64,000 nucleotides of DNA, taken from NCBI GenBank assembly GCA_902772905.1, contig CACYCL010000142.1:15105-79104 (forward strand), read 5' to 3'. Origin of the DNA: an uncultured bacterium (GTDB lineage: Bacteria; Verrucomicrobiota; Kiritimatiellia; RFP12; UBA1067). The notes beneath the pieces were generated by a model that worked only from the letters and a program-made list of their open reading frames with translations, searched no databases and had not been told where the DNA came from. Positions 1 to 28,696 of the stretch are shown here, piece by piece. Each line of letters begins with the position of its first letter. The stretch's first letter is position 1. A program made the position numbers and the translations under genes.

Positions 1-803
1 CCGACAGACGGCACTATGGCGGCGTCGAACTGCATCTCGCCGTCCATCGCAATGCCGGCCTCGGCAAACTTCGGGCGCGCCAGCTCGACCGCCCTCTGCA
101 CCTTCTCCACGAGGTCGCCGGCGGCCGATCCCTTCGTGGAGAAGCTGAGATACGCCACTTTCGGAACTCCTCCGGTGAGGTCGCGGTACGACTGCGCCGT
201 CGCAAGGCCGATGTCTACGAGCTGCTCGGCTGTCGGGTTGGGTATCACGCCGCAGTCGCCGAAAGCGAGAACGGTGTCGCCGGACGGCGTCGGGCGCTTC
301 AAGTCGAGAATGAAGCAGGAACTCGCCGTCTTCACGCCGGGCTGGGTGCCAAGCGTGTGGAACGCGGCGCGCAGCATGTCGCCTGTGGAGGCTATGGACC
401 CGGCTACAAGGCCGTTCACACGACCGAGCTTCACCATCATGCCGCCGAAGTAGATGCGCTTCGCGCGGAGCGTCTTTTCAGCCGCCGCAAGGTCTATGAT
501 CTTCTGCTTCTCGGCGGGCTTCTTCGACTCCTTGGCGTTCCATGCCTCAAGATACGCCTTCTCGAGCTCGGCGTCGCCAGCCGTGTAGTCGATGGTCTTG
601 ATGCCCCGCTCGGCCAGGCTCAGCCTGGCCTTCTCCTCTGCGGCGGCTATCTCGGCGGCGGTGCCGAGAACAACCGGCGTGCATATCCTGCGGTCGACGC
701 ATGCGCACGCTGCCGTTATGACACGCGGATCCTGGCCCTCGGGCAGAACAACCGTTCCGTTCAGCTTGGAGGCCCGTTCAATTATGTTCTTTATGGCGTT
801 CAT
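1..803 (-). CDS. pta: Phosphate acetyltransferase (Pta); C-terminal part runs off the window edge. A possible alternative start lies 11 codons upstream at 836.
   Basis: Minus-strand translation gives MNAIKNIIERASKLNGTVVLPEGQDPRVITAA...SFSTKGSA...FDAAIVPSV, which is typical Pta. It sits immediately downstream of ackA in the same orientation. Confidence 0.85.
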   Translation of the reverse strand, partial: MNAIKNIIERASKLNGTVVLPEGQDPRVITAACACVDRRICTPVVLGTAAEIAAAEEKARLSLAERGIKTIDYTAGDAELEKAYLEAWNAKESKKPAEKQKIIDLAAAEKTLRAKRIYFGGMMVKLGRVNGLVAGSIASTGDMLRAAFHTLGTQPGVKTASSCFILDLKRPTPSGDTVLAFGDCGVIPNPTAEQLVDIGLATAQSYRDLTGGVPKVAYLSFSTKGSAAGDLVEKVQRAVELARPKFAEAGIAMDGEMQFDAAIVPSV

Positions 804-837
804 GGCTTTCTGAATTGAGAATCCCTCATTCTCCATT

Positions 838-2004: not shown

Positions 2005-5000
2005 TTACTCGATCTCGACCCTGAAGAACCCGCTCTTCGCATCGACGTTCTCCGGGAGCGGAGCGCGTATCTCCGTGCCGTCGGACGTGATCGTGACCGG
2101 CTCTTCGGCGACGAGCTTCCAGTCGGCGGCCAGCGTCTCTGTGCGGTATACCTTCACCGTCACCTTGGCGCCGCTTGCAACCGAGTACAGCGCGGCGACA
2201 GCGGGATCGACCGAGCCGGCCTCCGTCTCGGCGCCGATGCCGAGCACCACTTCGCCGCTGGCGCGGTCTATCGCGAGCGACGTGATGGCCACGGAGTCGT
2301 CGACGACCTTGTCCTCGATGAACAGCGAGCCGGACGCGGTGGTCACCTGCGAAAGCGGAATGCCTGTCATCAGCGACACGGCGTACTTGCCGCCTATCGG
2401 GAGCTGCAGCGGGCTCTCGAAGCCCTGCGCCAGCTGCGTAAGCGTCGCCGTCAGGTTCGTGTTGACGGCTATCAGCTCCGCGTCGCCGACGACGGGTGTG
2501 ATCGCCTCTGCGTCGAAGACATTGCCGTTCTGCTCCGCTTCCCAGACATCCGGGAATCCGTCGCCGTCGGTGTCGCGGTCTTCGATGTAGATGCTGCGCA
2601 TGGCCTCTGCCGCAATCTCCGGCCCGACCGTGACCGCGACAGGATTGAATATCGTCTTCGATCCGCTCACCGCCGCCTGGTCGCGCATGTTCAGGTAGCC
2701 CCAAGACTCCCAGTCGTCAAGCTGCCAGTCGTAGTCGGTGTCGATATAGGCCCTCAGGTAGTACGTTCCCGCCTTGAGGCCGGCTATGCGAACCACCGAA
2801 CCGGCGTCGGCGGCGAGCGCCTCAGCCGTCACGTTCGTGGCAACGGCCTCGGCGACGGGCATGCCCGTGAAGTCGGGCGACTCGAACGCCTGCACGCGGA
2901 TGCGGTTGGCGAGGTTCGCGGCGGGGCCGACATAGCAGACCCTGGCGTCCACCGCGAAGGAGCTCTCGTCTAGCGTGGTCACGTTCAGGCGGAACGTGTT
3001 CCAGCCGGAACCGACGTTGTCCGTCTTGAACTTGGCGTTGTGGGTGTAGACCTGCCACGTGTAGTTCTCAAGGTTCTTGAACACGAGGTGGTCGCCGCTC
3101 GGCGACGGCGCATCGGCGAAGAGCGGAGCCGTCCAGCTGTAGACGCCAGACGAATCGGCCGCCGGCATGCGCTGGTAGCCGGAGTTGTAGACTTCGTTGT
3201 TGCTCGAATCCCTCACGACCACGCGGAAGGCCGTGTACGTCGTGCCATAGGCAGAGGCCCACGCATCCTCGTTGTCGATGCGCCAGCGGAACGTCGGCTG
3301 CGCCACGCGGCAGACGCCGTCGCCGTTGAGCGTCACCGCCGTAGGCGCGGTGTGCCTGATCTCGAAGCGGCGCGTGACGGCAAACGGATGCGCGTAGACC
3401 CTGTGCACGTTGTCCTTGTCGCTGTAGTACTCGATGTCGCCATCGCCAAGGACGACGGCGTACGTCATGTTTGTCACGTCGTCGCCGGCGCTTGCCACGT
3501 CAATGTTGTTGTACACCCCTCTCTCAAGGTTGTCCCAGTCGATGTCGAGCGCTCCGTCGGCGAGGAAGTCGCCCTCGTGGATGAAGCCACGGACATCGCG
3601 GCTGAACGTCTTGTCGAAGATGACCTCGGGGTCGGTGTTGACCTTCCAGACGGGATCGCCGTCAACCGCGAAGCGGACGACCCTGACGCGGGTGCTTGCG
3701 GGAAGCGACGAAACATCCGCCGTGATGAGCTTGTTCGATGGCGACGTCTCGCCGAAGCGAGCGATGCGGTCGCAGGAGTCGACCGTCCAGAGATCCAGAC
3801 GCGGAGCGATCGCGGAAGTATCCGAGAGCTCCATCTCGGCTTTCGTGGAGTTCCAGCCAACGTCAACGTTGTGGAGAACGCCAAACGGAGTGCCGGGCAT
3901 GTAATCAATAGAGGACGACTGCGTTTCATCGCCACCCTCCCTCGACACAACTGCATACGCCATGAAGTGATTCGCCCCCTCCTTGAGCATACCAGCTGTC
4001 GGCACATGGAGCGTCAGATTGCTGACACCACGCTTGACGGCATTGCTCAGAACAAAGACTGCATCCGGCACAAGCATTGCTGGATCATTATAGGCATTGA
4101 CTACGAGTGTCGCCGTCTCGCCTGCCGAAAGCTGGCTGCCATTGTAGTAGACCGTCAAATCAACCTTCGGCATAGGATGCCCACCGTATGCTACGATAGG
4201 TTTATACGCGACAAGAGTATAGCGAATCTTGGTGTCATACGAGCTTCTATATCCTCCACCAGGATTATCTATATCCAAATGCCAGCCGCTATAATTGTTT
4301 AGACTCTCAACACTTGCGATAACAGCCTGATTGGTTGCCATAAAGATGCTACGCTCCGTGCTGTCCATGTCAAACGTAACGGTATACAGATTCGTCTCGG
4401 TACCAACCTGCACCCATGTAGACTCGTCGTCTTTCGAACGCAACTCCGCGAAGTTCGACCACCCATTCTCGTCGCCGTCGCGCTGGGCGTCCCAGACGTT
4501 CGCGTCGATGGCATCGGAGTTCTGCGCGCGCTCCCAGTGGTCTTCCATCTGGTCGTGGTCGGTGAACATCTCGCCGACGTACAGCTTGCCGACCCTGCGG
4601 AAGTAGTCGAGCGTCCGCGTGTCGCTCATGGGGCTCTTCGGGTTCAGCAGCATTCCGAACGGGAAGCACTCGCTGATGATGTACTCGACGTAGTTGCTGA
4701 GTCCGTCGTTGTCCGTGTCCGTCGTGCCGCCCTCGCCGTAGACGCCGTACATGTCGTCCCACCAGTCGGGAGTGCCGCTCTTGTCCTCGTCGGCGGTCTG
4801 CGCGAGGTCGTCGCGATCGAGAACGTCGAGGTCGCCGTCATCGTTCGCAGCCACCACGCGGCCATGCGCCAGGTCGCGGCGGTATGCCTCGCCGGCCGTC
4901 ATCTTGATGCCGGGAACGGACGACGCCACGTCGCGCTTCCAGTACACGATCGTGTCCCACGTGAGCGGCTCGGACTCCGGCGAATAGTTCGCGACGGCGA

Positions 5001-8000
5001 ACTCCTCCCAGATGTCGGGCAGATCGTTGAAGTTCGCGTCGTCCGACGTGATCTCCCAGGATGTCGAGGCTCCCTCTCCGTCCCACATAGTGGAGCAGCT
5101 CTTCGCGTATGCGCCGCCAAGAGGCAGGAGGTCGAAGCCGTCCGTCAGGGCGTTGCGCCCGGTGAAGCGGAACATGTCGAAGCGCGCCGTGCCGGTCTCG
5201 TTCGTCGTGCTGCCGTTTTCGAACTTCGCGACAAGACTGTCAAGCTCGGCCATGAGGTGGTGGCGCATTCCGGGCGCACAATACTCGGTTTTGCGCGTCG
5301 CGTCATTGTAGGAAAGCTGCGTCCAGCGGCTCGCCGGCTCTGCAGTCCGCGCGAAATTGTACGTTCCGTTCGTGCCGCCGCAGGTGTTGTCGCTCCAGAA
5401 GAACGAGTCGAGGGTGGTGCCGTCGAAGCGCGGCAGGTGCGCGATCGTGTTGGGCACCCACTGCACCCACTGGTCGCTGGAGTACACGGAGCCGAAGCCG
5501 TCGAGAATCTTCTTCCACCACGATACGTTCCAGTCCGTCGGGCGGGACAGGACGGCCGCGCCGCGCTCTGGGTTGCCCAGCGCCGCCACCTGGTAGTAGT
5601 CGAAGCCGGCAGGCACCTTGGCCACGACTCCCTCGTCGGCGCCGCCTGGCACCGAGTCGAACGAGAAGTGGTAGCGCAGCTCCGGAACGAGCGAGACTTC
5701 GTCGCCGTCCGCGTCCTTCACGTAGCGGTTGCCGTACTTGCGCCAGTCGGAGTAGAACGAGTTGCGGTTCTCGAGCGCCGCATCGCGCGTGTAGCGCTTG
5801 CGGGCCGTGACGTCGGAGCGTATGTCGGCCGGCGCGCGCGCGCCGTCCCAGATGCGGACTTCGTCGATGTAGCCCTTGAAGAAGTTGTTGTAGTAGTTCC
5901 AGCCAACGGCATTGTTGACGTTGAACGCATCCGCCGCGCCGCCCTCGGCGAGGGTCTTGAGGCTCGCGCCCACGACGATCGTCCTGAGGGCATATTCCCT
6001 GTCGTACCAGTAGTCGCCGGTGGAATGGGCGTATATGAAGTCCGCAGGAGTGGTCGTCCGCCTCAGGACGAGCGCGCTCGTTCCGTATTCTGGCTGACGC
6101 GCCGACTCGACGGGCGCAGCCGCCTCGTATCCGTCAACGAACAGGATGAAGCGGGAGCCGTCAAAGGTCGCGGCGACATGATGCCACGCGCCGGTGTCCA
6201 CGTCGGCCGCGCTGAAGACTTCCACGTACGACCTCGGAAGCGTTCCGTTCGCGTCGTACTTCGCGTACCACTTTCCGTTCTTTATGCCGATCTGGAAGTT
6301 CTTCCTCACGAACTCCTCGTCGCCGGCCTTCGACTCGTCGCACCAGATGGCGCGCTCGACGAACGTCGCGTCGTCGGTGGACTCCGCCTTGACCCAGGCC
6401 TCGACGGTGAACTTCATGAACGTCATCTCGTCAGGCCAGACCTCGGTCGCCACTGGATAGCGCTCGGCGACCTCCGGCGGCGTCTGCAGGGCGGACGGAT
6501 TGCCGGCGCCCTGGAAGTACATCGCCTGGCGACGGTTCGGGGAGTTCGCGTCCTGCGGATCGGAAGAAGCGCGCAGCTTGCCCTCGGCCTCAACTGCATC
6601 GGACATCGCGTCATGGTCGCTGTCGTAGCCTTCGTTCTCCTCGAACGAGAACATCCAGTTCATCTCGCCCTTGCCATAGAGGAACCAGCCCCTGTCCTGG
6701 CTGCACTCCACATAGCGCGGCGGCAGCGGCGGGAGCAGCGACGCGGGCGCCCAGCAGCCGTAGTCGGTGAACGAATAGGTCTGTCCGCCGTATGTGAACT
6801 CGTCGCCTGCGGTCTGCACGAAGATGTCGCGGCCTGGCATGCGGAAGTACATGCGCGTCAGCGAGGCGTCGTAGCTCCTATCGGTCATCCAGAGCGGCGT
6901 CGGGTCGGTGTGAAGCCACGTCTTGGTGCCCATCTTCGACATGATCGCCTCCGTCTGGTTGCGCAAGTCGTCGCCGTCGGGGTCGGCGGTGGCAAGGCCG
7001 TTCAGCCACGGGTAGTACTCGAAGTCGTAGCCGGTGCCGCGAGGCGCCTCGCCGGTCTTGTAGTACGTTCCGTTCTTGGCGCGGAACGTCCAGGCGTTGG
7101 CCTTCGGGTCGTCCGCATTCCAGGCCTCGAAGATCGTGTCGGAGCCGTCGCTGTGCCAGGCGTCGAACACGATGTCGCACGGGCCCTCGTTCTTGAGCGG
7201 CACTCCGCTGGCGCCGAGAAGCGGGTTCATGCCGTGGAAGAGCTCGTAGTAGTCGTCCATGCCGTCGTGGTCGGAGTCGGCCTCGATAGGCGAGCAGCTG
7301 ATGTACTTGTTCGGCCTCGTGACGAACGTTCCGGACTTCTCGGCTTCCTCGGCGAACGGCATCGCCCAGAGGTCGCGCAGGCTCTCGTCGCCTACGCGGT
7401 CCTTGAAGTAGTACCACGCGCCGCCGGCGGAGTGATCGACGTACGCGGGATCCCAGACGTTGTCGATGCGCGAGAAGTACTGGGCGCCGGTCGTCTGGCC
7501 GCTGATGAGGCGCGGGTTGTAGATCGGGCTCGTCTTGTCCACGAGCGTCTTGTACCAGAACTCGCCGTCGCCGCCGTCCTCGGCGTCCGTCGTGATCGTC
7601 TCATCTCCGAAGAGCTCGTTGATGAGCTCGTAGTCGGGCGAGAAGTTGCCGTCGTCGTCCCAGTACGCCTCGTCCGGTATCGAGACCCACGGCGTCAGGA
7701 TGTCGTCGTAGCGCCAGCAGCGCATCGTCCCTGCCATGTACTCCTGCCAGTTCTCAAGGCCGTCGCGGTCGTAGTCGCGGTTGACCTTGCCGAACATCTT
7801 GGCGCCGTCGACGCGGTCGAGAATCGCCGTTCCGATGCGCCCGTCGGCATCGACGCTGCCTGTCACAATCGTCAGAGCGTCCATCACGGTGCCGTCCATG
7901 CCGTCGACAAGGCCCTCAAGCGGGTTGCCGACGGCGCTTCCGTCCACCGTCGCGTATGTGGCATCCTCGCCGGAGTAGACGGAGGAGCCGTTGTACTGCA

Positions 8001-14421: not shown

Positions 14422-14481
14422 GTAGGTTCTCCTCTTAAAGTTCATTCCAAGGTTCTTTGTGGGTTTCACGTTCAATGCTCC

Positions 14482-14910
14482 TTATCTGGCGGACGGCTGG
14501 GCAAGGCGTTCGCGCACCATCGCATTCGCCTTTCTCCTGGCCTCCGTGATCGCCGTGTTCGCGTCTTCGCAGCGCGCGTAAAGCTCTTTCCACTCCGGGT
14601 CCTTCTCAAGCTCCGCCTTGAGCTTCGCCTCGTCCTCCGGCGAAAGCCCCTGCCCGGCGGCGGTCGCGATGCCGAGCGCCTTCTTCTTGGCCTCGATCAT
14701 CTCCTCCATCTTCGCCACCACCGCTCCGCGCGCCCTGGCGAGCTCGCCGCGCTTCGCCGACTGCTCGCCCAGCTCGGCGATGAAGGCCTTGTCCTGCAGC
14801 GCATTGTCCGGCGCGGCGGCTGCGGGTGCCTCCTCCCTGCTGCAGCCGCACGTCGCCACAAGCACCAGGGCGAGGGCGGCTGTCGCGGTTCTGTTCGTCA
14901 TTGCTGTCAT
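14482..14910 (-). CDS. Small lipoprotein, A/E/K-rich with a coiled-coil-like sequence
   Basis: Start MTAMTNRTATAALALVLVATCGCS gives a signal peptide and lipobox-like LVATC|G. A GGAGGAG RBS sits 7 nt upstream of the ATG at 14910. The gene lies between the two giant genes in the same orientation. Confidence 0.6.
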   Translation of the reverse strand: MTAMTNRTATAALALVLVATCGCSREEAPAAAAPDNALQDKAFIAELGEQSAKRGELARARGAVVAKMEEMIEAKKKALGIATAAGQGLSPEDEAKLKAELEKDPEWKELYARCEDANTAITEARRKANAMVRERLAQPSAR

Positions 14911-14927
14911 CTGCACGGCTCCTCCAA

Positions 14928-17900
14928 TCATTCCTCAGGTCTGCACGGGTTGGCTGTCTTCATTATCTCCGCCTCGGTCGGCATGCTGCGGTCGCTGACG
15001 TCCCACTTGAAGAACAGCGACGACGGCCTGCCGTGCGTCTGCGCCCACTCGTACCAGCGCGCGCTGTAGCCGGGCGACTCTGTCGAGAACGGATCAAGTA
15101 TCTCGACCACCGACGTGAAGTCGGCGTCGAACGACGTTGGCGTGAACACGAACCACCTCAGCGGAATCCAGTTGCGCTCCTCGGCGGAGTCGACGGAAAG
15201 CCCGTTCACTCCGAGAAGCCCCTTGACCTTGAACGTGGCGTTCGTCCACAGCAAGTCAGACTCTATCTTCGCGTACTCCCAGGAGTTTTCCAGCAACTCC
15301 ACGCCCTGCAGTATGTAAGGCGCCCAGCCGGGGCCGCCCGCCGCCGTGTTCGTGATCTGCATGTAGACGCGGCTCGTGAGGTCGTTGCTTCCCGACTTCG
15401 GCCTCGGGCTCTCCGAGCCGGACCATCCGGCGCAGAGCCTGATGTCGTGGTCGTTCCACGTCGGGTCGATGTCGAACCAGTACATCTCGGTGAGCGTCAT
15501 GTTTGTCGTGACGGTGCCGTTCGCCTCCGCCTTGTCGGCAAGGCCCAGCTCCGTCGCGTCCTTGTTGTGCCATTCGTTGCCGTACGCGTCGGTTCCGCGC
15601 ACGAGCCAGTTCACGATGGCATTGCGGTAGCGGCTGTCCTCGCCAACGCCATAGCGCTCGGCGAGAGACGAATCGACCTTCGCGGACGCCACGACCGTGA
15701 TGTCGTTCGACGTCGCCGCGCCCACGCTGAGCGTCCATTCGCGGTCGTTGCCGGTCGGCACGGGCGTTGCGTACATTCCGTTCACCGTGACCGTGCCGAT
15801 CTCGTGCCAGCGGCCGGCGCGGTAGGTGATGTTCGTACCCTCCTCGCTTCCCTTGCGGTACACGACGGTCACGGAACCCGCGGTGTTCGTCTCGCTGCCG
15901 AACGACTGCGCAAGGTTGTCGCCCTGGATTATCGAGTATATCATCAGCGCGCCTCCGCGGGCCTTCGGCGGCTCGCCGGTTATCGCCTGGCCTTCGTTCT
16001 TGCGCCCGGGCGTCATCAGCTGCGTGTTGTTCCACTGGATCGCCGCGCTTCCGTTGCCGGCGAACACGCCGACTGACCTCGACCACGCATTGCCGGCGGG
16101 CACGCCGCCTTCGTCCGCGCCGACGTAGATGAAGTCTCCGCCGCGCTCCTGCGCCGAGAGCATCGCCGCCGCGTACTCTGGGTTGAACGACGACACGTAC
16201 GACCATTCGTTCGTTCCAAGCACGACGATCTCGCTCTCCACCACGCCCGACGGCCTCACGAGCTGCACCGCAAGCGGATAGTACGACTGTATCTCGCCGT
16301 TCATCACGCTGTCGGTTGCGTTCGCCACCGTCCACGTTCCGTCCAGCCTGCCGTCGCTCGCGTCCAGCGAGCCCTTCGCGTTCGGCGAGCCTATCACGTG
16401 AAACACCATCTTGGACTCCGCGTCGATGCCCTTCAGCTCAGTCTTCGTCGCCGGAAGCCCGTTCATGCCGAACTCCGCCACGTCGTTGGTGACCACCCCC
16501 GTCAGCCTGACGGGGTCGCTGCCGCTCATCTTCGCGTCGAGGAAGCGGAGCGTCCATCCGGAGAGGCTCGCGTCGGACGGCGCGGCCACCTCCACGAACT
16601 GCAGCGGCTTGTCGGAGTTGTTGTAGTTGTCGTCGTACACGCCGAATACGTTCGCCTCGTTGATCCACGCCCAGCCCGGCGCGACAGTGTCGAGCAGCGT
16701 GTAGGCCGAGAACGAGCCGTTGCCGTACTGGGCGTTGTAGTCGATGGGCCTGTACCACGGCGGGTTCTCCCACTCCGCCGACGACAGCCAGTTCGTCTGC
16801 GGCTGGCCGTTGGCGCGGTAGATGACCTCAAGCATGTACTGCACCGGCATCATCGACTTCTGGGCGGGCATGACGGCTGCGGACGCGCCGAAGTAGCCGG
16901 AGCGGAACACGAGGTTCGAGTCGCTCGCCTCCATCAGCCACGCGTTCTTAGCGTCCGGCAGGTCCCTCCACTTGTCGAAGCCCCACGGCGCCGGCTGCTC
17001 GTACCACCAGAGCCTGACGCGCGCGCTGGAAAGGTCGATCTCGTCGGCCAGCTGCGACGCATACACCTCGCACTGGACGCCCCACTCCTCGCCAACGAGC
17101 GGCTGCTGCGCTGCGGACGGCACGTTCGTAACCGCCGTGGTCTCCTCAAGGCCCGTGCGGAACGCGCCGACGTTGCGGAACGAGACCGACGCCACTATGC
17201 CCTCCATGACCAGCACTTCGTCGATGAGCACCCTCTGCGCCGGGACAAGCGGCTCCTCGTCGGCCATGGGCTCCGTAACGCCGTCCACCCCCGTCACCGC
17301 CAGGCGGAACGCCTTGTACGCGCTGCCCGCAGGGAAGCGCTTCGCGTACGCCTCGTACGTGGTGTTCGTTATGTCCCAGCTCGTGAGCTTCGCCCACATC
17401 GACTCTTCGCTCAGGTCGCCGTAGGTGGCGCCGTACAGCGTGACGCGCGCGGTTCCGGCCTTGGGGTCGTACAGCCTCGCCAGGAAGCTCACCTCGTTTA
17501 CCATGTTCGTCGCGAAAGTAGGCGTCTGCAGAAGCGGATACTTCTTCTTGTACTCGTCTGCCGAGCCGTCGGTGCGTATGTCGTCCACAATCGAGTTGTT
17601 GAGCGCGAACGCAAGGCCGTTCTTGAGCGGATCGCTCGCGTTGTCGTCGATGCTGACCAGCGCGCCGTCGTCCGTCGTGCGGAGGTTCCAGCCCCACCAG
17701 GAATGTGCGTCCAGCACCGGCTCGTCGCGGAACATTACGCCCGTTATCGTAACTTCTCCGAACGCCGTCGGGTCGGTCACGTCCTCTACCGCCGCCACCG
17801 TAGCCGGGTCTACCATGATGCGCATCGCGCCCCTCACGCCGTGCAGGCCGAAGTACACCCTGACCGTGCCGCTCGCGCGCTCTGCCGCGCTCATCGCCGC

Positions 17901-20900
17901 GAAGTTGATGTTCGTGAAAGTCGTCCAGGAGCCCTCCGCCGTCTTTGTGAGCGACTGGAAGCCCGAAAGCGGAACGCCGTTCGTGGCGATCTGCACGAGA
18001 AGCACCGCGTTCGACTGCGCGTTCTCGTACGTGAAGCCAAGCTGGCCGAGGCCGAGGCCCTTGTCGCCGTCGCCCACCATGCGCGGGGAGCGTATCGACG
18101 AGGCAACGTCCGCATACGACCTCTTGGCCGAGAGCAGAACCGCCTTGCCCTTCTCGCCTGCGGAGTTCACCGTCTCGCGAACCCAGCCCTGCGTGAACAC
18201 GATGTTCGTGGGAGAGCCATACACGAGGTCGTCGAACACGCCGAGCTGGTCGCCGTTCTCGTCGTCGTAGCTTTCGCCGCGCCACTGCGTGAACTCGATG
18301 TCGTCAAGCGTAACGTCCACGCGCGCCGTCTTGAAGCCGCCGCCGGCCTGCAGCCTCACGGAGCACGGATCAAGGCTGTATAGCGGAATCGTCGTGGTGG
18401 CGCCCGAGGAGCTGGACGACCCGAAGCCCGAAACCTCCTGCGACTTCAGAAGCGCCCACTTCGTAGTTCCCGCAGGTGCGGTGTACACGTCAACCGTAGT
18501 GGAGGGTGTCTTCGCGTTGATGCCGTAGCTGTTGAAGTCGCCCGTATTCACAGCCTCCATGCGCGACTTGTTTATCGCCCACTTGCCCGCCGCCAGGTCT
18601 TCTCTGCAAAGGACACGCGCCGAGGTCGAGATCGGCGTTATGGTGTATGTTCCCTGCTGGAAGCCGTTCTGCGAAGACGATGCCTGGTACGTAACCGCCG
18701 ATGCGCTGTACGACGGCTGCATGAAACGCGCCGGGCAGTTCGCCGAGAGAAGCCCGTACGTTCCGTACGTAAGGCGCTCTGCGGACGTGTCACGGTACAT
18801 GACCTCGCGGTACGACGCGCTGTTGAAGAAGCTCGACCTCGCAACGGAGTCTCTCGCAACTCCGCCGACTACGCGCGTCTGGCCGTCCACCGACGTATCG
18901 ACCGATATGAAGAGCCGCGCATAGCTGCCGCCCTCGCTCGTGGTGTTGAACATGTTGTTGCCGTTGGAGTGCGTGGCGGTGCCGAGGCGCGTCGGAACTA
19001 TCTCGCCTTGCTCGTCGTCGTACAGCCAGCGGTACAGCGAAAGCCTGAACGTCGTGCCCGGCGAAACAACTCCAGCCGTGTTGATCGATGCGTTTTCCTG
19101 TTCCACCCGAAGCTCATAGCACCCAACCCCAGTCGTGTAGTGCGCAACGAGCGAGAGCGACGCATTGCCGGCGAAGTTCCTCCTGCCGTTTATGTCGAAC
19201 GCCGCAGCCGTCATGAACGTATATGTGCTAAGCGAAGTCGCGTCTGTTCGGAAATAGCTGAAGTCGCCAAACGAAATGTCCTGCGCGATTCGCGCCTTGA
19301 ACGACACCGACTCAAGCCCGCGCGGCGCGCCCGTGAAGTCAACGAGCTGAATGTAGCCCTTGCCCTTGCCCTCCATCTGGAGCGCCATTCCCGTGTTGTT
19401 GTCGCGGTAGAAGCCGTTCACCCACTGTCCGGGGCCAACGTCGAACGCCGTGTTCGGCGATATCGCCGCGCCGAACGGCTGGTACAGCGGCCAGGAACCT
19501 CCGTCCAGCTCCGCCTTTGTCGCGTAGAACGCCTCCTGCCAGTACTGGTTCGTCGGAACAGAGATGTTCCAGCTCTCGAAGTGCGACTCGTGCGTTACTG
19601 CCTCGGCGGTCGTGCCCGACATGTTCACCGAATTCGTGTCGGAGGAAGTTCCAACGAAAATGCCCTTGCCGTCCGTCTTGTTTGCGTCTGTCCAGCCGTT
19701 GAAGTCCTGGTAGTCGGCGTGGACCACCGTGTAGGCGAGCGTGTCGTCCTGAATCTGAACCATTATCTGCCCGCTCTTGGCGTCGCATGGAACGGTATGC
19801 CACGCCCAGCCGTCGTCGTTATCGCTTGCGGCGAGCACACCCGTCGCCGGCAGGTCTCTCGCGTTTTCCGCGAGAGAGTAGCGCACCGTGTTGAGGTCGT
19901 ATTCGGTGTTGCCTGCCTCCTGCCTGTTGTTGCCGGCGATTCGAATGTAGATCCCGCCGTCTATCGCAGTGCGCGTCGGGCAGAAGCCGCGCCAGATGTG
20001 GTTGGCCGAGAGCGACATGTCGTACGCCTTCTCCTCGCCGTCCTCGCTCTCCTTTACATAGAGCGTGAAGCCCTCCCAATCGCTCTCGCCGCGCCTCAGG
20101 CGGAAGAACCAGTCGGTTCCGCCGCTCGGCAGGCTCGTGTAACCCGTAACGGAAATCTGCCTGTTGGTGCTTGCCGTCACCTCTTCGGTGTAGAGCGCGC
20201 TGCCATCGGCGCCATTGAGGTCGAGACCAAGGCCAGAGTAGTCGTAGTACTTGAACGCCGGAACCTGAACTACGTAGTCGTACCAGAACTCGATGTCGCC
20301 AACAACTGCGGGAATGTCGATTGGCTGTATCGAGGTGAACCCGGCCGAGGGGCGAAGGTTTATGGTCTGCCACTCGTTCGTCTGCTGGTTGAGATAGCGC
20401 CAGCGGTAGTTCATCTGCGCCCAGGCAATCGGCATATCAACCGCTACGTGCGCGTTCACGTTGGTGTCAACAAGCGCCTTGGCGCGGGCGTACACCCCTT
20501 TCGCGCCGGCCTTCGGGAACGGTACGCTCATCGCGCCACCCCAGCCGCGCACCTGCCGACCCGTCAGCTTGTTGTTGAACGACCCGTAAGGCTCCAGCGA
20601 CGCCGTCGACTTCGGGTACGAAACGAGAATGTTGTCAACAACTATAAAGCCGTATTCGTCGGCAGTCCACGTCTGGTTTGGAATCTGTGCCGTGCGGACA
20701 ATCCTGAAGCGCACGTTGCCGCCGTTGTCCACGGGAACCGCCACGCGGTAGAAGTTGTCGGCGGTGCCGCCGTTTGTGATCTCAAGCGTCAGCTCCGTGG
20801 CATCCGTCTGGTCTGGCGCAAAAGCCGCAGTGTTGTCGCGCTTGAACGGCTTCATCGCGTATGCGTTGTAGTTGGTGCCGCCGTCAACAGACACTTCAAC

Positions 20901-23615
20901 CCTTATCTTGTAGCATCCGGCATTGGCGTACCTGGTGTCGGCGTTTACAACGTCGAAGTAGATCGTTCCCACGCCGTTCGTGTAAAGGGGCGAGAATATC
21001 ACCGCGCCTTCTACGTTGCGCATAAGCATGGTGCCCTGCTCGGTCAGCCCCGCCGCCGCAGACTCGGCCGATATCGCCTTCGCTGTTGACGAATTAGGTA
21101 GATAGCAACGTACGCTTCCCGGAATACCTCCGGCTAAGTACGTGTTGCCTATGACGACATCTTCCAGCGTCCACAACGCATTGGCATTGCCGCTTGAATC
21201 TGTGGTGTAAAGCACGTGGTTTGCATACGGCTTGACATACGGGAAACTTCCTATGTTTACACTGTGATCCACAGAATGTACCCAGTACGTAGAATGCACT
21301 GAGCTGTCCGTCTGCCAGTACGACTGGTCGGTTACGGAATGGCCGCCGGGGGCGGAGTCGTCGTTCACTAGCAGAACGCGCCCGTTCTGCGTAAGCCCGC
21401 CCGCGTCGCCCGCGAGATCTTCGTAGGTGATGTGGCCAACTATGAAGAAGTCGATGCCGTACTCAAGCGTTTCGTATATACCTTCCGGGTCGTGCGGACC
21501 AAACACCGCGCTGTACGAGCCGCCGGCGGTCGGGATGCCGCTCATTACCGCGCCCGTGTTGAGGTTCGTAACGTAGAGAAGCGCCGATGTGCCTTCTTTG
21601 ACCGCGCCCACGCTCTGAACCGCTCCTATCTCGGAATCGGTTGAATCCCACTTTGTCTTCGTGAGCGACGGGTAGGCCGTCCAGTAGTTCACGCGCTTGC
21701 CGTCGCGAACAACCAGGTCGAAGGTGCAGCTCGGCTGTGCGCCGGAAGGCTCGTCTACGGAGGCGGAGCGGCTTGGCGGCTCCTTGCCGTCGCGAACATA
21801 CCAGAAGAGGCGAATCACCTGCGAGCTGGTTGTCATGGTCGGCAGCTTTACCCAAATGACCGATTCGCCCGAAGTGTTCCAGTAGTCAACCTTGTAGTCG
21901 AGGAGAGTGCCGTCCGCATCGGTTATGGCGAGGTCTTCGCCAGTCTTGCCGGCGCGCGAGTAGAGGAAGCCGACAGGCGCATCCTCGGCAACCTTCAGCG
22001 CGTAGGAGTAGTCGGTGGCGGCGGCAGAAGCGCCCGCTATCGTTATCTCCACGTAGTCGCGGTAGACGTCGCCCGGACCGTTCAGAATCTTGAAGCTCGT
22101 AATTGCCTCGGCGCCGTTGTAGCTGTCGGTAGCCTCGATGTAGGCGCGCAGGTAGTAGGTGCCAACCTCCGTAGGCTTTTCGGCCGCCCACGGCCCAGTG
22201 GCAGATTCGCCATACCAGTACGTAGGCGCAACTGCAATGGAGACGTCGCAGCCCGGATTCGGCGTAGCCTCGTCGGGAGTGCCGTAGATCCAGTTGCGAA
22301 TGGAGAGGTTCGTTATCTTGGGCGTGGCCTTGCTGATCGTGAGCGTAACCGTAACCTCCTCATTGCCGCCCGTGGACCACTCAAAGCCGTCAACGAGCGT
22401 GACCTTGGCCTTGTAGGTTCCGAAATTAGTGCCAGCAACGCTTTCAACCACCTGACCGTATGTAGCCGAACCCTCGGTCAAGTCGGTAATCACATACGCC
22501 GCGTTCGCGGGAACCAACACATGCTCCAAGCCGTCGAAAGCAATCGCCTGAGAGACCGGCTTTGCGATTTCGCCAACGGCTATAACGCTAATTCTGATGT
22601 ACAGAACGCCCTGATAGCCGCTACCACCGCGTGTAGTCGCGCGCGCTGGAAGCGCACCACAGCCGCCGCCGCCACCGCCGTAGAATGTAGCGTCAGTTGC
22701 CGCTACGTTAAGGCCGTAACCGCCGTTGCCGCCGCCACCCTTGCCGCCAGCGATGGGGTCGTGCGACGCAGTGAACGACTTGTCGCAAAAGCCGCCCGCG
22801 CCGCCACCTGCATAGTAGATTTCTTCGCCAGTGATATCGCTTGCGCGACCGTCGCCGCCTACAGGGTTGGTCGTGGAAGCCGCAGCACCTGCAGCGCCTG
22901 CACCGCCGCCGCCGCCGCCGTAAAGACCACGGTTACCAGCACCGCCTGCATAACCCTGACCATTGGTTGCTGCGCCGCCTGGATGACTCTCACTTACCGT
23001 TGTACCTGAACGATAAGCTGAACCGCCGCCTCCGCTGCCACCGTCAAGACCATCGCCTTCACCACCGCCACCGCCTCCGCCGACCGCCGTGATCAGCGCC
23101 GTTTCACCAATGGAAAGCGTTGTGTTGCCGCCAGACGAGCCAGTGTATCGACCACGCGTTGCACTATGCAACTGCGACGACGCTCCACCTGCGCCACCCG
23201 AACCAACAGTAACAGAATACGTGGCAGAATCAAAAACACTAGTCGTCTCTACCATGCCACCTGCGCCGCCACCTGCGCCAGCACCATAATACGTTGTCAT
23301 CGCAGTGGAAAGAGTGCATATGCCTCCTCCGCCACCTCCGCCGCCGACCGCGAGAACTCGAGCCTTGGTCTTCGAGCCTTCGGGAAGCACAAACGAGCCT
23401 TCGCCGGTGAACTTGAGGAGCAGCTCGGTGCCGTTGAGCCACGTTACATCTGCCGCGCCGTAGTACTGAACTTCGCCGCCAGTCACCGTGGCGCTGCCAT
23501 CAAGAGCCTTTGCATCGCGTACGAGCGATGCCATAAGAGAAAGCACGACAAGAGCGCGCGCCCATAGCGCCGCCCCGCTCCTTTTCTCGCGTTTCTGGAA
23601 GCGATTACGCGTCAT
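14928..23615 (-). CDS. Giant secreted glycine-rich protein (about 2895 aa)
   Basis: One uninterrupted ORF. I moved the start to the ATG at 23615 (MTRNRFQKREKRSGAALWARALVVLSLMASLV, signal-peptide-like) with an AAGGGAG RBS. The N-terminal 350 aa carry poly-Gly and GGxGG tracts. The stop is 18 nt from the lipoprotein gene start. Confidence 0.75.
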   Translation of the reverse strand: MTRNRFQKREKRSGAALWARALVVLSLMASLVRDAKALDGSATVTGGEVQYYGAADVTWLNGTELLLKFTGEGSFVLPEGSKTKARVLAVGGGGGGGGICTLSTAMTTYYGAGAGGGAGGMVETTSVFDSATYSVTVGSGGAGGASSQLHSATRGRYTGSSGGNTTLSIGETALITAVGGGGGGGEGDGLDGGSGGGGSAYRSGTTVSESHPGGAATNGQGYAGGAGNRGLYGGGGGGAGAAGAAASTTNPVGGDGRASDITGEEIYYAGGGAGGFCDKSFTASHDPIAGGKGGGGNGGYGLNVAATDATFYGGGGGGCGALPARATTRGGSGYQGVLYIRISVIAVGEIAKPVSQAIAFDGLEHVLVPANAAYVITDLTEGSATYGQVVESVAGTNFGTYKAKVTLVDGFEWSTGGNEEVTVTLTISKATPKITNLSIRNWIYGTPDEATPNPGCDVSIAVAPTYWYGESATGPWAAEKPTEVGTYYLRAYIEATDSYNGAEAITSFKILNGPGDVYRDYVEITIAGASAAATDYSYALKVAEDAPVGFLYSRAGKTGEDLAITDADGTLLDYKVDYWNTSGESVIWVKLPTMTTSSQVIRLFWYVRDGKEPPSRSASVDEPSGAQPSCTFDLVVRDGKRVNYWTAYPSLTKTKWDSTDSEIGAVQSVGAVKEGTSALLYVTNLNTGAVMSGIPTAGGSYSAVFGPHDPEGIYETLEYGIDFFIVGHITYEDLAGDAGGLTQNGRVLLVNDDSAPGGHSVTDQSYWQTDSSVHSTYWVHSVDHSVNIGSFPYVKPYANHVLYTTDSSGNANALWTLEDVVIGNTYLAGGIPGSVRCYLPNSSTAKAISAESAAAGLTEQGTMLMRNVEGAVIFSPLYTNGVGTIYFDVVNADTRYANAGCYKIRVEVSVDGGTNYNAYAMKPFKRDNTAAFAPDQTDATELTLEITNGGTADNFYRVAVPVDNGGNVRFRIVRTAQIPNQTWTADEYGFIVVDNILVSYPKSTASLEPYGSFNNKLTGRQVRGWGGAMSVPFPKAGAKGVYARAKALVDTNVNAHVAVDMPIAWAQMNYRWRYLNQQTNEWQTINLRPSAGFTSIQPIDIPAVVGDIEFWYDYVVQVPAFKYYDYSGLGLDLNGADGSALYTEEVTASTNRQISVTGYTSLPSGGTDWFFRLRRGESDWEGFTLYVKESEDGEEKAYDMSLSANHIWRGFCPTRTAIDGGIYIRIAGNNRQEAGNTEYDLNTVRYSLAENARDLPATGVLAASDNDDGWAWHTVPCDAKSGQIMVQIQDDTLAYTVVHADYQDFNGWTDANKTDGKGIFVGTSSDTNSVNMSGTTAEAVTHESHFESWNISVPTNQYWQEAFYATKAELDGGSWPLYQPFGAAISPNTAFDVGPGQWVNGFYRDNNTGMALQMEGKGKGYIQLVDFTGAPRGLESVSFKARIAQDISFGDFSYFRTDATSLSTYTFMTAAAFDINGRRNFAGNASLSLVAHYTTGVGCYELRVEQENASINTAGVVSPGTTFRLSLYRWLYDDEQGEIVPTRLGTATHSNGNNMFNTTSEGGSYARLFISVDTSVDGQTRVVGGVARDSVARSSFFNSASYREVMYRDTSAERLTYGTYGLLSANCPARFMQPSYSASAVTYQASSSQNGFQQGTYTITPISTSARVLCREDLAAGKWAINKSRMEAVNTGDFNSYGINAKTPSTTVDVYTAPAGTTKWALLKSQEVSGFGSSSSSGATTTIPLYSLDPCSVRLQAGGGFKTARVDVTLDDIEFTQWRGESYDDENGDQLGVFDDLVYGSPTNIVFTQGWVRETVNSAGEKGKAVLLSAKRSYADVASSIRSPRMVGDGDKGLGLGQLGFTYENAQSNAVLLVQIATNGVPLSGFQSLTKTAEGSWTTFTNINFAAMSAAERASGTVRVYFGLHGVRGAMRIMVDPATVAAVEDVTDPTAFGEVTITGVMFRDEPVLDAHSWWGWNLRTTDDGALVSIDDNASDPLKNGLAFALNNSIVDDIRTDGSADEYKKKYPLLQTPTFATNMVNEVSFLARLYDPKAGTARVTLYGATYGDLSEESMWAKLTSWDITNTTYEAYAKRFPAGSAYKAFRLAVTGVDGVTEPMADEEPLVPAQRVLIDEVLVMEGIVASVSFRNVGAFRTGLEETTAVTNVPSAAQQPLVGEEWGVQCEVYASQLADEIDLSSARVRLWWYEQPAPWGFDKWRDLPDAKNAWLMEASDSNLVFRSGYFGASAAVMPAQKSMMPVQYMLEVIYRANGQPQTNWLSSAEWENPPWYRPIDYNAQYGNGSFSAYTLLDTVAPGWAWINEANVFGVYDDNYNNSDKPLQFVEVAAPSDASLSGWTLRFLDAKMSGSDPVRLTGVVTNDVAEFGMNGLPATKTELKGIDAESKMVFHVIGSPNAKGSLDASDGRLDGTWTVANATDSVMNGEIQSYYPLAVQLVRPSGVVESEIVVLGTNEWSYVSSFNPEYAAAMLSAQERGGDFIYVGADEGGVPAGNAWSRSVGVFAGNGSAAIQWNNTQLMTPGRKNEGQAITGEPPKARGGALMIYSIIQGDNLAQSFGSETNTAGSVTVVYRKGSEEGTNITYRAGRWHEIGTVTVNGMYATPVPTGNDREWTLSVGAATSNDITVVASAKVDSSLAERYGVGEDSRYRNAIVNWLVRGTDAYGNEWHNKDATELGLADKAEANGTVTTNMTLTEMYWFDIDPTWNDHDIRLCAGWSGSESPRPKSGSNDLTSRVYMQITNTAAGGPGWAPYILQGVELLENSWEYAKIESDLLWTNATFKVKGLLGVNGLSVDSAEERNWIPLRWFVFTPTSFDADFTSVVEILDPFSTESPGYSARWYEWAQTHGRPSSLFFKWDVSDRSMPTEAEIMKTANPCRPEE

Positions 23616-23671
23616 CCGCTCCCTTCTCAACTTTTCTTTTCGTTCTCTTTTTTCTTCGTTTCATTGCAAGG

Positions 23672-23698
23672 CAAAACGCCCTCTCGCCACACGAGAGG
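23672..23698 (-). promoter_or_regulatory. Leader hairpin followed by a U-tract in the 5' UTR of the giant-protein operon; attenuator or terminator-like
   Basis: Minus-strand RNA reads CCUCUCG-UGUGG-CGAGAGG (7-bp perfect stem) followed by GCGUUUUGCC. It lies between the predicted promoter and the RBS. Confidence 0.35.
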
Positions 23699-23723
23699 AC
23701 ACTTCACCTTTTCTATCGACGCA

Positions 23724-23753
23724 ATTATACCATTTTCTTATTCGCTAGGTCAA
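23724..23753 (-). promoter_or_regulatory. Sigma70-like promoter for the giant-protein operon (TTGACC - 18 nt - extended -10 TGGTATAAT)
   Basis: The reverse complement reads cTTGACCtagcgaataagaaaaTGGTATAATtgcg. It lies about 110 nt upstream of the ATG at 23615. Confidence 0.45.
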
Positions 23754-25133: not shown

Positions 25134-25214
25134 CTTGCACTTCTCTTTCTCCCATGTGCGCGTGTATTATACTAAATGCGTTTGCACGGAGCAAGGAGCG
25201 TTTACATTCCCTCC

Positions 25215-25372: not shown

Positions 25373-25380
25373 GGGTGAGA

Positions 25381-25422: not shown

Positions 25423-25453
25423 TCGCTGTTTGGCTTATTCGGCCTTGAGCAGC

Positions 25454-28633: not shown

Positions 28634-28696
28634 TGTTTTTTTCCTTTGTTTGTTTACCACAAATTCGTCACCCATTCGGGTGTACACTTCTGCTTA

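Follow-up and report, generated by a model that had tools for sequence, protein, structure and literature searches.

Giant proteins have been described in the Omnitrophota, which are grouped in the PVC supergroup; they measure 10-85 thousand aa and are highly repetitive, with dockerin, TSP3 and HEAT units; many contain transmembrane segments, and they have been read as predation tools, their function being assigned in silico only (West-Roberts et al., bioRxiv 10.1101/2023.11.21.568195). The locus reported here resembles them by description. It belongs to a related lineage, and its two very large products, predicted to be extracellular, carry TSP3 calcium-binding motifs as well as domains linked to attachment or carbohydrates; genes of secretin and pseudopilin type make up a conserved neighbourhood, and function is likewise inferred in silico only. 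However, the giants here have 2.9 and 4.1 thousand aa, are non-repetitive and are paired with a small lipoprotein, and their hosts are gut-associated, presumably fermentative Kiritimatiellae. A first-pass annotation of this DNA had correctly suspected a PVC-type bacterium.

Another related system is found in Akkermansia muciniphila, where Amuc_1098, a secretin, exceeds all other outer-membrane proteins in abundance (Ottman et al. 2016, PMC4960237; 2017, PMC5332112). Here the likeness, to the cluster Amuc_1098-Amuc_1102, concerns neighbouring genes outside the window (the whole 64,000-nt stretch that was analysed), not the giants. To our knowledge, no giants have been described next to that cluster in Akkermansia. 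TSP3 calcium-binding repeats also occur in the Myxococcus surface adhesion proteins MtsD (cell-cell cohesion) and CglD (gliding adhesin), the latter being a lipoprotein-associated adhesin of the motility machine. The match of giant 2 to CglD comprises the TSP3 repeats only (30.7 bits, cut-off 400), and there are neither a VWA domain nor Glt/Agl genes at our locus. Adhesins of the RTX/type I secretion group (LapA, SiiE, MpIBP) are similarly very large, calcium-dependent, rich in beta-sandwiches and furnished with lectin-like ligand-binding modules. In contrast to both giants they have no Sec signal, and their C-terminal RTX/T1SS signal, near-identical repeat arrays and ABC/MFP/TolC neighbours are all missing here. 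In its predicted fold, the core of giant 1 recalls Bacteroides SGBP-B and the tandem CBM22/CBM51 of glycoside hydrolases. There is no sequence similarity to those proteins, however; Sus-like genes and a catalytic domain are absent, and the size is tenfold larger. Kiritimatiellae specialise in glycan degradation.

The features of the locus are as follows.

23724..23753, minus strand: sigma-70-type promoter with a TG extended -10 (TTGACC-18-TG-n-TATAAT; TTGACC and TATAAT 18 nt apart), 11/12 consensus matches
23668..23710, minus strand: strong hairpin opening the ~100-nt 5' leader (MFE -35.6 kcal/mol, z -2.75)
14928..23615, minus strand: giant 1 ORF, 2895 aa, Sec signal peptide, acidic, all-beta, without internal repeats
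22590..23393, minus strand: glycine-rich domain (Pfam Gly_rich_2) of giant 1, aa 75-342 (63.5 bits, cut-off 24.3)
21819..21941, minus strand: weak DUF2341 match in giant 1, aa 559-599 (21.1 bits, slightly below the cut-off of 23.4)
17016..20615, minus strand: conserved core of giant 1, aa 1001-2200, a predicted array of CBM-like jelly-roll domains
14482..14931, minus strand: small lipoprotein ORF, 149 aa from the first ATG, predicted alpha-helical
2005..14421, minus strand: giant 2 ORF, 4138 aa, with AGAGGAG upstream
7243..9936, minus strand: best-conserved region of giant 2, aa 1496-2393, holding 8 of its 10 dispersed TSP3 motifs
6046..6423, minus strand: LamG/concanavalin-A-like lectin domain of giant 2, aa 2667-2792 (Laminin_G_3, 70 bits, cut-off 27.6)
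2992..3978, minus strand: module of ~330 aa in giant 2, aa 3482-3810, also present in tail-fibre-position proteins of Mu-like phages
2008..2289, minus strand: C-terminal beta-sandwich of giant 2, ~95 aa, ending GFFRVEIE (model strands 806-898)
838..1968, minus strand: ackA, acetate kinase (Pfam 7e-131), 36 nt past giant 2
1..836, minus strand: 5' part of pta, phosphate acetyltransferase, 1 nt past ackA and leaving the window
59344..60273, plus strand: pseudopilin-like gene closing a pseudopilin cassette (GspG 4e-8, prepilin N-methyl domain 2e-7)

Giant 1, the lipoprotein, giant 2, ackA and pta lie in this order on the minus strand, near oriC (dnaA at 35.6 kb), and the spacers measure ~17 nt, 60 nt and 36 nt up to ackA. 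The ORFs of the giants and the lipoprotein are genuine and not chance: GC3 (0.79-0.88) stands well apart from the GC content of codon position 2 (0.46-0.50), and there are Pfam matches and full-length homologues. GC3 equals the ackA level in the lipoprotein and giant 2 and is somewhat below it in giant 1 (0.79). The longest giant 1 ORF (14928-23630) begins with TTG; translation probably starts from the ATG at 23615, which has AAGGGAG ahead of it. The first ATG of the lipoprotein overlaps the giant 1 stop codon, and M8 at 14910, with GGAGGAG 9 nt upstream, is the probable start (142 aa).

In the giant 1 leader an A-rich tract and the ribosome-binding site come after the hairpin. Where the window has its promoter, the relative L003 shows TTGACA-17-TATCAT and, in its leader, a hairpin at the same place with a different stem sequence. 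An Rfam search of the hairpin gave no family match; it may serve as an mRNA stabiliser. We found no terminator-like site in the three spacers between giant 1 and ackA, and no sigma-70-like promoter within 300 nt upstream of ackA, either in the window or in four other lineages. The sequence is compatible with transcription running through ackA. The first-pass annotation had proposed a closely spaced three-gene unit behind a strong promoter and free of a recognisable terminator before ackA, and this description holds, its sizes and gaps being correct within 1-2 units.

Both giants have a Sec-type N-terminus as their sole hydrophobic segment, with cleavage predicted after AKA (aa 35-37) in giant 1 and after aa 23 (AHA|A) in giant 2. 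Models for PEP-CTERM, LPXTG and T9SS-CTD found no match in either giant, as had been claimed for them. The Gly_rich_2 domain occurs in 5 of 10 giant 1 family members and is related to phage families (phrog_2295, 2e-35; phrog_754 'minor tail protein', 1e-7; phrog_863 'tail fiber assembly', 3e-5), while DUF2341 is found in six of the ten (best 3e-16). The core belongs to a family of at least 271 homologous protein clusters. Its AF2 model (pLDDT 72, pTM 0.49) retrieved reelin repeats, Vip3A C-terminal domains, tandem CBM22 + CBM51 and SGBP-B with Foldseek. Since the Foldseek matches of the giants are generic ones to multi-domain beta-sandwich proteins, with TM-scores of ~0.1, glycan binding is suggested, not demonstrated.

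Giant 2 is very acidic (617 D+E vs 308 K+R) and also lacks internal repeats. Its TSP3-type calcium motifs (DxDxDGxxDxxE) give a TSP3_bac score of 78.6 bits, or 78.7 for the 4138-aa form, and their Asp and Gly residues make up most invariant columns of the family alignment. Mean identity is 46-58% in the region that holds most of them vs 31-35% in the N-terminal third. The lectin domain, present as Laminin_G_3 in 11 of 13 family members, matches by sequence the LamG domain of pappalysin-2 in the PDB. The ~330-aa module, modelled with a pLDDT of ~85-94, is 38% identical to phage protein P0045 (E 2e-58), and two tandem copies with 47-50% identity are found in phage protein P0033. The C-terminal 900 aa were modelled as a structure similar to chains of MG, FN3 and pilin-like beta-sandwiches. 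An ending SGFFKV is kept in 10 giant 2 homologues and is absent from the giant 1 family; the domain that carries it gave no match to known sorting-signal models.

Pfam searches and structure prediction, which had been recommended for both giants, thus yielded Gly_rich_2, a weak DUF2341, LamG and TSP3 together with CBM-like and Ig/FN3-like folds. This content fits the adhesin half of the earlier label 'adhesin/S-layer-like'; nothing specific was found for the S-layer half. The giants might nevertheless form an S-layer-like or sheath-like coat with the lipoprotein as membrane anchor. The strong promoter, a GC3 near the ackA level and the origin-proximal position suggest abundance, collinear full-length conservation without repeats suits a structural role, and one Foldseek match is the S-layer protein 7ptp. 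However, 7ptp is one of many generic beta-sandwich matches, a search of the giants for SLH or other S-layer anchoring domains found none, and known S-layer proteins are mostly single species of 40-200 kDa. In one assembly of the same species, a 31-bp deletion shifts the reading frame of giant 2, so that giant 2 may be dispensable, or the assembly wrong; such a variant speaks against an essential coat. We consider a coat quite improbable.

The small protein has 25 homologues, in which G29-C30 of the lipobox (consensus L-A-G-C, followed by SRE) and a second cysteine (Cys121) are invariant; the motif ELEKDPEW is a further mark. The copy in the window has an atypical lipobox, T-C-G-C. Its helices show heptad-like spacing of hydrophobic residues, in agreement with the coiled-coil lipoprotein that had been predicted, and it has no match in Pfam, NCBIfam or the PDB. 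Its position between the giants suggests that it may anchor or export them.

The giant-lipoprotein-giant triplet recurs across Kiritimatiellae assemblies from gut and rumen. The first-pass annotation had stated that its proposal would fall if relatives did not keep the lipoprotein between giant genes, and it withstood this check. Both giants align with their orthologues over the full length in single collinear HSPs of 2500-3300 aa (30-70% identity), and Sec signal peptides are kept in both families. Named homologues are annotated only as 'hypothetical', 'DUF2341' or 'LamG domain-containing'. It is conceivable that the three genes and ackA-pta are mere neighbours in a stable origin-proximal order and work independently, with the giants perhaps released as soluble glycan-capturing proteins. 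Indeed, ackA and pta clearly have functions of another kind, and the order varies: the giant downstream of the lipoprotein is giant 2-like in 13 of 15 loci, giant 1-like in L011 and an unrelated protein with PKD domains in L018, and an upstream giant, found in 10 of the 13 loci whose upstream DNA is available, is missing in L011, L018 and L019. However, a giant gene follows the lipoprotein homologue in all 15 loci, even where lipoprotein identity has fallen to ~30%, and the spacers are 0-90 nt long, with ribosome-binding sites and without terminators. Independent neighbours seem highly improbable to us.

Giant 2 adjoins ackA in five lineages, and in all three with enough DNA the order continues giant 2, ackA, pta, SIS/CBS, Amuc_1102, 1101, 1100, 1099, 1098 (secretin). 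The genes past ackA-pta, outside the window, match all five Amuc NCBIfam families in the same order as in Akkermansia, with only Amuc_1099_fam clearing its curated cut-off. In the L009/L013 lineage giant 1 is preceded, only 4 nt away, by a pseudopilin homologue; the L013 gene is 37% identical (E 4e-47) to the product of the pseudopilin-like gene of the window, which may be linked to the giant module. The Amuc_1098-1102-type cluster, the pseudopilin link, the phage-tail modules of both giants and the SGFFKV-ending domain are absent from the first-pass annotation.

These neighbours raise the possibility that the giants belong to an Amuc_1098-1102-type pilus-like machine, as parts or as dedicated cargo, for example as a giant tip or fibre adhesin built onto secretin and pseudopilus or extruded by them, the ~43 kb array being one organelle locus. 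The constant giant 2-to-secretin order, the matches to the five Amuc families, the TSP3 motifs common to giant 2 and the Amuc_1099-like protein and the fusion of a pseudopilin gene to the operon of L009 and L013 argue for it, as does the location of Omnitrophota giant genes next to type II secretion-like loci (bioRxiv 10.1101/2023.11.21.568195). However, the signal peptides of the giants are of the Sec and not the prepilin type, and three housekeeping-type genes (ackA, pta and the sugar-phosphate isomerase-like SIS/CBS gene) separate the giants from the secretin cluster, so the synteny may merely reflect a stable origin-proximal gene order. Akkermansia, moreover, has Amuc-type clusters and no such giants known. 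We regard a single organelle as unlikely.

The gene anatomy, conservation, domain content and predicted folds of the unit are documented above. As to its role, we favour, at about even confidence, a cell-envelope module, conserved in Kiritimatiellae from gut and rumen, that would form a lipoprotein-associated, calcium-stabilised, glycan-binding surface complex, possibly exported through a secretin. The two Sec-exported, non-repetitive giants would be made together with the small alpha-helical lipoprotein from a strong promoter and most likely build a calcium-stabilised glycan-binding structure at the cell surface. Giant 1 would contribute a glycine-rich head akin to phage tail proteins, followed by Ig-like and DUF2341 domains and a long CBM-like jelly-roll array, and giant 2 Ig/FN3-like beads linked by TSP3 calcium-binding loops, a LamG lectin and the conserved C-terminal domain. 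The lipoprotein may tether or chaperone them at the outer membrane, which they could cross via the downstream Amuc_1098-type secretin and pilM-like cluster with the help of pseudopilins. The constant order up to the secretin, the pseudopilin homologue ahead of giant 1 in L009 and L013 and the pseudopilin cassette of the window support this route. Points against the favoured reading are the three genes between giant 2 and the secretin cluster, the atypical lipobox of the window copy, the frameshifted giant 2 and the size of the giants, since proteins of 300-450 kDa would be unusually large type II secretion substrates. The complex would bind host or dietary glycans. What is new in this arrangement is that the array extends beyond ackA-pta to a pilus-like secretin cluster of the type known from Akkermansia (Amuc_1102-1098), that a pseudopilin homologue stands directly ahead of giant 1 in another lineage, and that a 330-aa module of giant 2 recurs at the tail-fibre position of Mu-like phages.

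On the minus strand, the ORF list contains, head to tail, reading frames of 2900, 149 and 4156 codons, followed by one of 376 codons. The likely starts of the first three genes, which encode two very large secreted proteins (giant 1 and giant 2) and a lipoprotein between them, were chosen by ribosome-binding sites. The resulting features are:

23753-23724, minus strand: promoter TTGACC-18-TGnTATAAT, score 11/12
23668-23710, minus strand: strong hairpin at the extreme 5' end of the giant-operon leader (leader about 100 nt)
14928-23615, minus strand: giant 1, 2895 aa
14482-14910, minus strand: lipoprotein, 142 aa, with ribosome-binding site; 14482-14931 (149 aa) if read from the first ATG
2005-14421, minus strand: giant 2, 4138 aa
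838-1968, minus strand: ackA (Pfam 7e-131, TIGR00016 1.6e-131)
from 1 nt past ackA until it leaves the window, minus strand: pta

The spacers between giant 1 and the lipoprotein, the lipoprotein and giant 2, and giant 2 and ackA measure about 17, 60 and 36 nt. The closely spaced three-gene unit described in the first-pass annotation is thus real, with ackA directly after giant 2, and the promoter it placed ahead of the unit was recovered as well. The GC3 of the minus-strand genes is 0.79–0.88, and the coding strand is certain. Antisense to giant 2 and the lipoprotein runs a 3510-codon ORF (4537-15069, plus strand). We rejected it as a gene, since its composition (GC1 0.89, GC3 0.59) mirrors that of giant 2, as expected of a high-GC shadow ORF.

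None of the spacers contains a terminator-like site, in agreement with the earlier claim that no terminator precedes ackA. A simple consensus scan, which non-consensus promoters would escape, found no consensus promoter within 300 nt upstream of ackA in five lineages. Judged from these features, co-transcription is plausible. The closest relative, L003, whose proteins are 70% identical, has a TTGACA-17-TATCAT promoter and, at the equivalent place in the leader (~1205-1245), a hairpin with a different stem sequence. Rfam gave no match in the 5' leader or anywhere in the window, and neither a riboswitch nor another known RNA was found. The leader hairpin may be an mRNA-stabilising or attenuating element. 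In two lineages, L020 (~14170-14208) and L023 (~4343-4381), the spacer between giant 2 and ackA carries a GC-rich hairpin, GCGGGCC-TTCG-GGCCCGC, without a U-tract; the spacer in the window has no counterpart of it.

Upstream of the promoter, positions 23823-33200 (minus strand) have a lower GC3 (0.48–0.67, versus 0.8–0.88 in core genes). This stretch contains unannotated genes of 436 and 1077 aa, two ATPase_2/HTH genes and a second near-consensus promoter at 28733-28705, and it could have been acquired as an island. L003 likewise has the 436-aa gene upstream of giant 1. The region as a whole adjoins gidA, dnaA and dnaN (33580-38420, plus strand), which places the whole locus near the replication origin.

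A search of 5.8 billion proteins returned 25 homologues of the lipoprotein, all metagenomic and none of them named. Scanning one genome per GTDB species gave 11 loci, nearly all from MAGs titled gut or rumen Kiritimatiellae or Kiritimatiellaeota. The named homologues of the giants likewise come from Kiritimatiellae and 'Candidatus Colisoma equi' (phylum Kiritimatiellota). We found no paper mentioning the giant or lipoprotein family in the literature. The synteny check that the first-pass annotation had proposed bore out the arrangement: a giant ORF immediately follows the lipoprotein homologue in 15/15 loci, and a giant also precedes it in 10 of the 13 loci having upstream DNA. By tblastn, both giants are collinear full-length orthologues, with single HSPs of 2500–3300 aa at 56–70% identity in close relatives and 27–37% in distant ones.

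Exceptions occur. The giant downstream of the lipoprotein is giant 1-like in L011 and an unrelated PKD-domain protein in L018; L011, L018 and L019 are without an upstream giant. What stays constant is therefore the pairing of lipoprotein and giant, and the complete triplet is the usual arrangement. It is conceivable that the three genes are mere neighbours and do not form a functional unit; these irregular loci could be read in this way, but given the invariable adjacency of lipoprotein and giant we think this very unlikely.

With aa 1001-2200 of giant 1 as query, an exhaustive HMMER search yielded 271 clusters (50% identity), of which 217 score below 1e-30. Their proteins, with few exceptions, are 2200–7000 aa long and match the entire query; the giant 1 core family is large and sharply bounded. 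For giant 2, the C-terminal 899 aa served as query against the 5.8 billion proteins.

Some further observations concern the integrity and assignment of individual loci. In three more distant lineages (L020 1-14167, L021 1-14491, L024 2-13459), the giant 2 region is called as two genes separated by 20–90 nt, an N-terminal one of ~3000 to >5000 aa and a C-terminal one of ~1400–1500 aa, so giant 2 is not always a single polypeptide. L001 (ERZ914846), a contig of the same organism from another sample, is identical to the window over 12 kb except for a 31-bp deletion (window 7449-7479, L001 ~4520), which shifts the reading frame of giant 2 near aa 2315. Either the strain in that sample has a disrupted giant 2, or the assembly is wrong at this point. 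The loci L014, L016 and L011 lie in bins titled Alistipes onderdonkii, Candidatus Methanomethylophilaceae archaeon and Lentisphaerae; these contigs are probably mis-binned in the public MAGs.

The two giants show no similarity to each other, and neither contains an internal repeat when compared with itself (E<1e-3). We therefore rejected both an origin as paralogues and a repeat-adhesin architecture. Both are acidic. As the first-pass annotation had stated, each has a signal peptide; it is of the Sec type, forms the sole hydrophobic segment and is kept across both families. The domain searches and structure prediction suggested there identified Gly_rich_2 in giant 1 and Laminin_G_3 and TSP3_bac in giant 2, and gave mostly-beta models. 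Gly_rich_2 (PF21722) covers aa 75-342 of giant 1 with 63.5 bits (Pfam gathering threshold 24.3). The same residues match phage protein families in PHROGs (phrog_2295, 2e-35, and others annotated as minor tail protein and tail fibre assembly protein); a tblastn search of phage sequences gave no match for this glycine-rich domain, possibly because of the low-complexity filter. DUF2341 is weak in the window copy of giant 1 and reaches 3e-16 in relatives, being present in 6/10. No family matched the other ~2300 aa. An impression that aa ~2290-2480 resemble a lamin-tail domain was unsupported by a Pfam scan at E<=1.

In giant 2, Laminin_G_3 (LamG, aa 2667-2792) scores 70.2 bits against a threshold of 27.6 and occurs in 11/13 family members, and TSP3_bac scores 78.7 bits against 25 and occurs in all 13. 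Ten DxDxDGxxDxxE (TSP3) motifs are dispersed over the protein, and their Asp and Gly residues account for most of the invariant columns of the family alignment. The protein closes with a C-terminal beta-sandwich ending in SGFFKV/GFFRV; ten homologues share this ending, which the giant 1 family lacks. At the extreme C-terminus (window 2008-2030, minus strand), ...SSGFFKVxxE is kept among the giant 2 homologues P0026-P0046; it matched no known sorting signal. In a PDB sequence search with the giants, the LamG domain was the only match, and Pfam scans of six unannotated segments at E<=1 returned only noise.

AlphaFold2 models computed with the available homologues are nearly all beta for both giant 2 aa 3240-4138 (pLDDT 74.6, pTM 0.68) and giant 1 aa 1001-2200 (pLDDT 72.2, pTM 0.49). 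In Foldseek, the giant 2 tail resembles chains of macroglobulin, FN3 and pilin-type beta-sandwiches, and also FN3-rich phage tail proteins. The giant 1 core resembles arrays of jelly-roll, CBM-like domains: reelin repeats, Vip3A C-terminal domains, tandem CBM22 and CBM51, GH101 accessory domains, botulinum HA3 and Bacteroides SGBP-B. For both models these are generic beta-sandwich arrays with TM-scores of about 0.1, low values that are expected because the models are flexible and multi-domain. The models point to extracellular, probably glycan-binding arrays of domains; they support no narrower assignment.

The best-predicted part of the giant 2 model is a module of ~330 residues (aa 3482-3810, window 2992-3978, minus strand) that is shared with phage proteins. 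It matches the C-terminal half of P0045 in one copy (38% identity, E 2e-58), while P0033 consists of two tandem copies, each 47–50% identical to that of giant 2. Both are encoded on a pair of related contigs of Mu-like phages or prophages with 64–65% GC (L022, 10001-12022, and L025, 9404-11722), where a Mu-type portal, a head protease and a tape-measure-like gene precede them; this is the tail-fibre position. Deposited phage genomes (INPHARED) and IMG/VR contigs gave no match to the module. Together with the phage-tail-like glycine-rich head of giant 1, the module shows that parts have been exchanged between the giants and phage tail proteins. Tail fibres of phages attach to the surface of the host, so the module may have its binding partner in the Kiritimatiellae envelope or in the giants themselves.

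In the lipoprotein family, G-C is invariant in 26 sequences and the consensus, L-A-G-C followed by S-R-E, agrees with the lipobox [LVI][ASTVI][GAS]-C that closes the signal peptide of Lgt/LspA substrates; the window copy reads T-C-G-C, which is atypical at -3 and -2. As position +2 is Ser and not Asp, the protein should be sorted to the outer membrane by E. coli rules. The family has a second invariant Cys and an ELEKDPEW motif. Its long helices, read from the sequence, show hydrophobic residues at 3–4 spacing, which fits a coiled coil or helical bundle; a profile search of the PDB gave only non-significant coiled-coil matches (best E 0.08).

Beyond ackA and pta, the gene array adds a context that the first-pass annotation did not include. 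In L001 it runs on along the same strand with gaps of 0–60 nt, through a SIS/CBS protein and then five genes, which lie outside the window. Their best NCBIfam matches are, in this order, Amuc_1102_rel, Amuc_1101 (PilM-like, 1e-120), Amuc_1100, Amuc_1099 and Amuc_1098 (secretin, 2e-125), although only Amuc_1099_fam exceeds its curated cut-off (86.9 vs 50) and the other four families remain below theirs (419 vs 750, 404 vs 650, 39.7 vs 180 and 23.2 vs 55). In Akkermansia this cluster is regarded as pilus-like, and its secretin is the most abundant outer-membrane protein (PMC4960237). L020 and L023 also show this gene order after giant 2, although their giant 2 has only ~32% identity. Adjacency of giant 2 and ackA was seen in five lineages, with a gap of 1 nt in L024.

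A second linkage lies on the other side of the triplet. In L009 and L013, giant 1 is preceded at a distance of 4 nt by a gene with 37% identity (E 4e-47) to window 59344-60273 (plus strand), a GspG-like gene with a prepilin N-methylation motif that closes a pseudopilin cassette. The truncated L013 gene was recognised by neither Pfam nor NCBIfam, and it is this identity that lets us read it as a pseudopilin. The cassette itself (50916-60273, plus strand) comprises about eight genes, most with prepilin-type N-terminal methylation motifs; its members are GspG/H/K-like and 'Verru_Chthon cassette protein D'-like, plus one 1069-aa protein. Through the secretin cluster and the pseudopilin gene, the giants are thus repeatedly associated with components of a type II secretion or type IV pilus-like apparatus. 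One could take this linkage to mean that the giants are parts of the pilus-like machine themselves, which we regard as rather unlikely.

We compared the giants with the known classes of secreted giant proteins. The C-termini (...NPCRPEE in giant 1, ...GFFRVEIE in giant 2) lack the hydrophobic helix of PEP-CTERM and LPXTG proteins, and neither giant has a Por_Secre_tail-type domain of T9SS cargo in Pfam or NCBIfam. The models for all three signals were without match, as the first-pass annotation had it, and scanning the C-terminal 139 aa of giant 2 at E<=1 brought up RibLong (0.048) and nothing else. RTX and other type I adhesins have no Sec signal and carry C-terminal RTX nonapeptides and long near-identical tandem repeats, whereas the giants have Sec N-termini and no repeats, and Pfam found no RTX match in them or in family members. 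Pfam families of type V secretion (autotransporter beta-barrel, TPS domain) are missing from both giants and 23 family members. Giant 2 scores 30.7 bits with CglD (NF033765), far from the curated cut-off of 400 and through the TSP3 repeats only. The giants thus lack the defining features of RTX adhesins, type V proteins, T9SS cargo, PEP-CTERM proteins and CglD. A polymorphic-toxin or contact-dependent inhibition system was also rejected, because no toxin domain is present and the C-termini do not vary but are conserved. That the giants form an S-layer-like coat we hold to be quite unlikely; no SLH or other anchoring domain was detected by Pfam in the giants or family members.

Both giants possess the Sec/Tat signal peptide expected of type II secretion substrates; beyond this, only their proximity to the secretin cluster and the pseudopilin genes hints that they may be such substrates. 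The closest parallel to the Kiritimatiellae giants is found in the Omnitrophota, a group placed in the PVC supergroup by the paper that describes them, whose giants are encoded beside type II secretion-like loci, are in some cases rich in TSP3/dockerin repeats and have been read as predation tools (bioRxiv 10.1101/2023.11.21.568195). However, the Omnitrophota dockerin-type proteins exceed 30,000 aa and have numerous tandem dockerin/TSP3 repeats, whereas ours measure 2895 and 4138 aa and show dispersed TSP3 motifs without tandem repeats. The shared feature is the type II secretion-like neighbourhood only. The giants would fit a known kind, that of large Sec-dependent surface adhesins with an accessory lipoprotein. 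The unexpected part is their conserved link to the Amuc-type secretin cluster.

All functional statements on this locus are inferred from sequence, and we give the following overall reading about an even chance of being correct. The promoter at 23.75 kb would drive giant 1, the lipoprotein and giant 2, and probably read on into ackA-pta. The three proteins would be exported by Sec, and the lipoprotein would be lipidated and sit in the outer membrane. The giants would fold into long calcium-stiffened beta-sandwich chains with LamG and CBM-like binding sites and serve, at the cell surface, in attachment to glycans or particles. More doubtfully, and judging by gene linkage only, the lipoprotein could tether or chaperone the giants, which could pass through the Amuc_1098-type secretin with pseudopilin help. 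Bolder, and in our estimate unlikely, is the idea that the triplet encodes an unrecognised Kiritimatiellae surface organelle. This would be a giant fibre free of repeats, which the PVC-specific Amuc_1098-type secretin system with its pseudopilins exports and displays and which the dedicated lipoprotein docks. In this picture the ~330-aa module would serve for self-docking or for binding to the cell surface, and Mu-like phages would have copied it into their tail fibres as a means of finding that same surface on their host.

Kiritimatiellae, most of them uncultured, are common in animal guts and the rumen, where they degrade glycans; to our knowledge their cell surface is essentially undescribed. 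The locus defines three uncharacterised protein families, linked in a conserved and probably highly expressed module; the giant 1 core alone comprises at least 271 clusters at 50% identity. Should the giants be no more than ordinary large adhesins, the gain is a useful annotation and little else. The module shares its array with the likely counterpart of the Akkermansia Amuc_1100/PilQ cluster, for which we know of no assigned cargo or fibre. If the giants are the structure served by the secretin, this much-studied PVC gene cluster would gain a testable function, and the Kiritimatiellae would provide a second case, after the Omnitrophota, of giants coupled to type II secretion-like machinery. 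The module shared with phages gives an entry point to phage–host recognition in the phylum.
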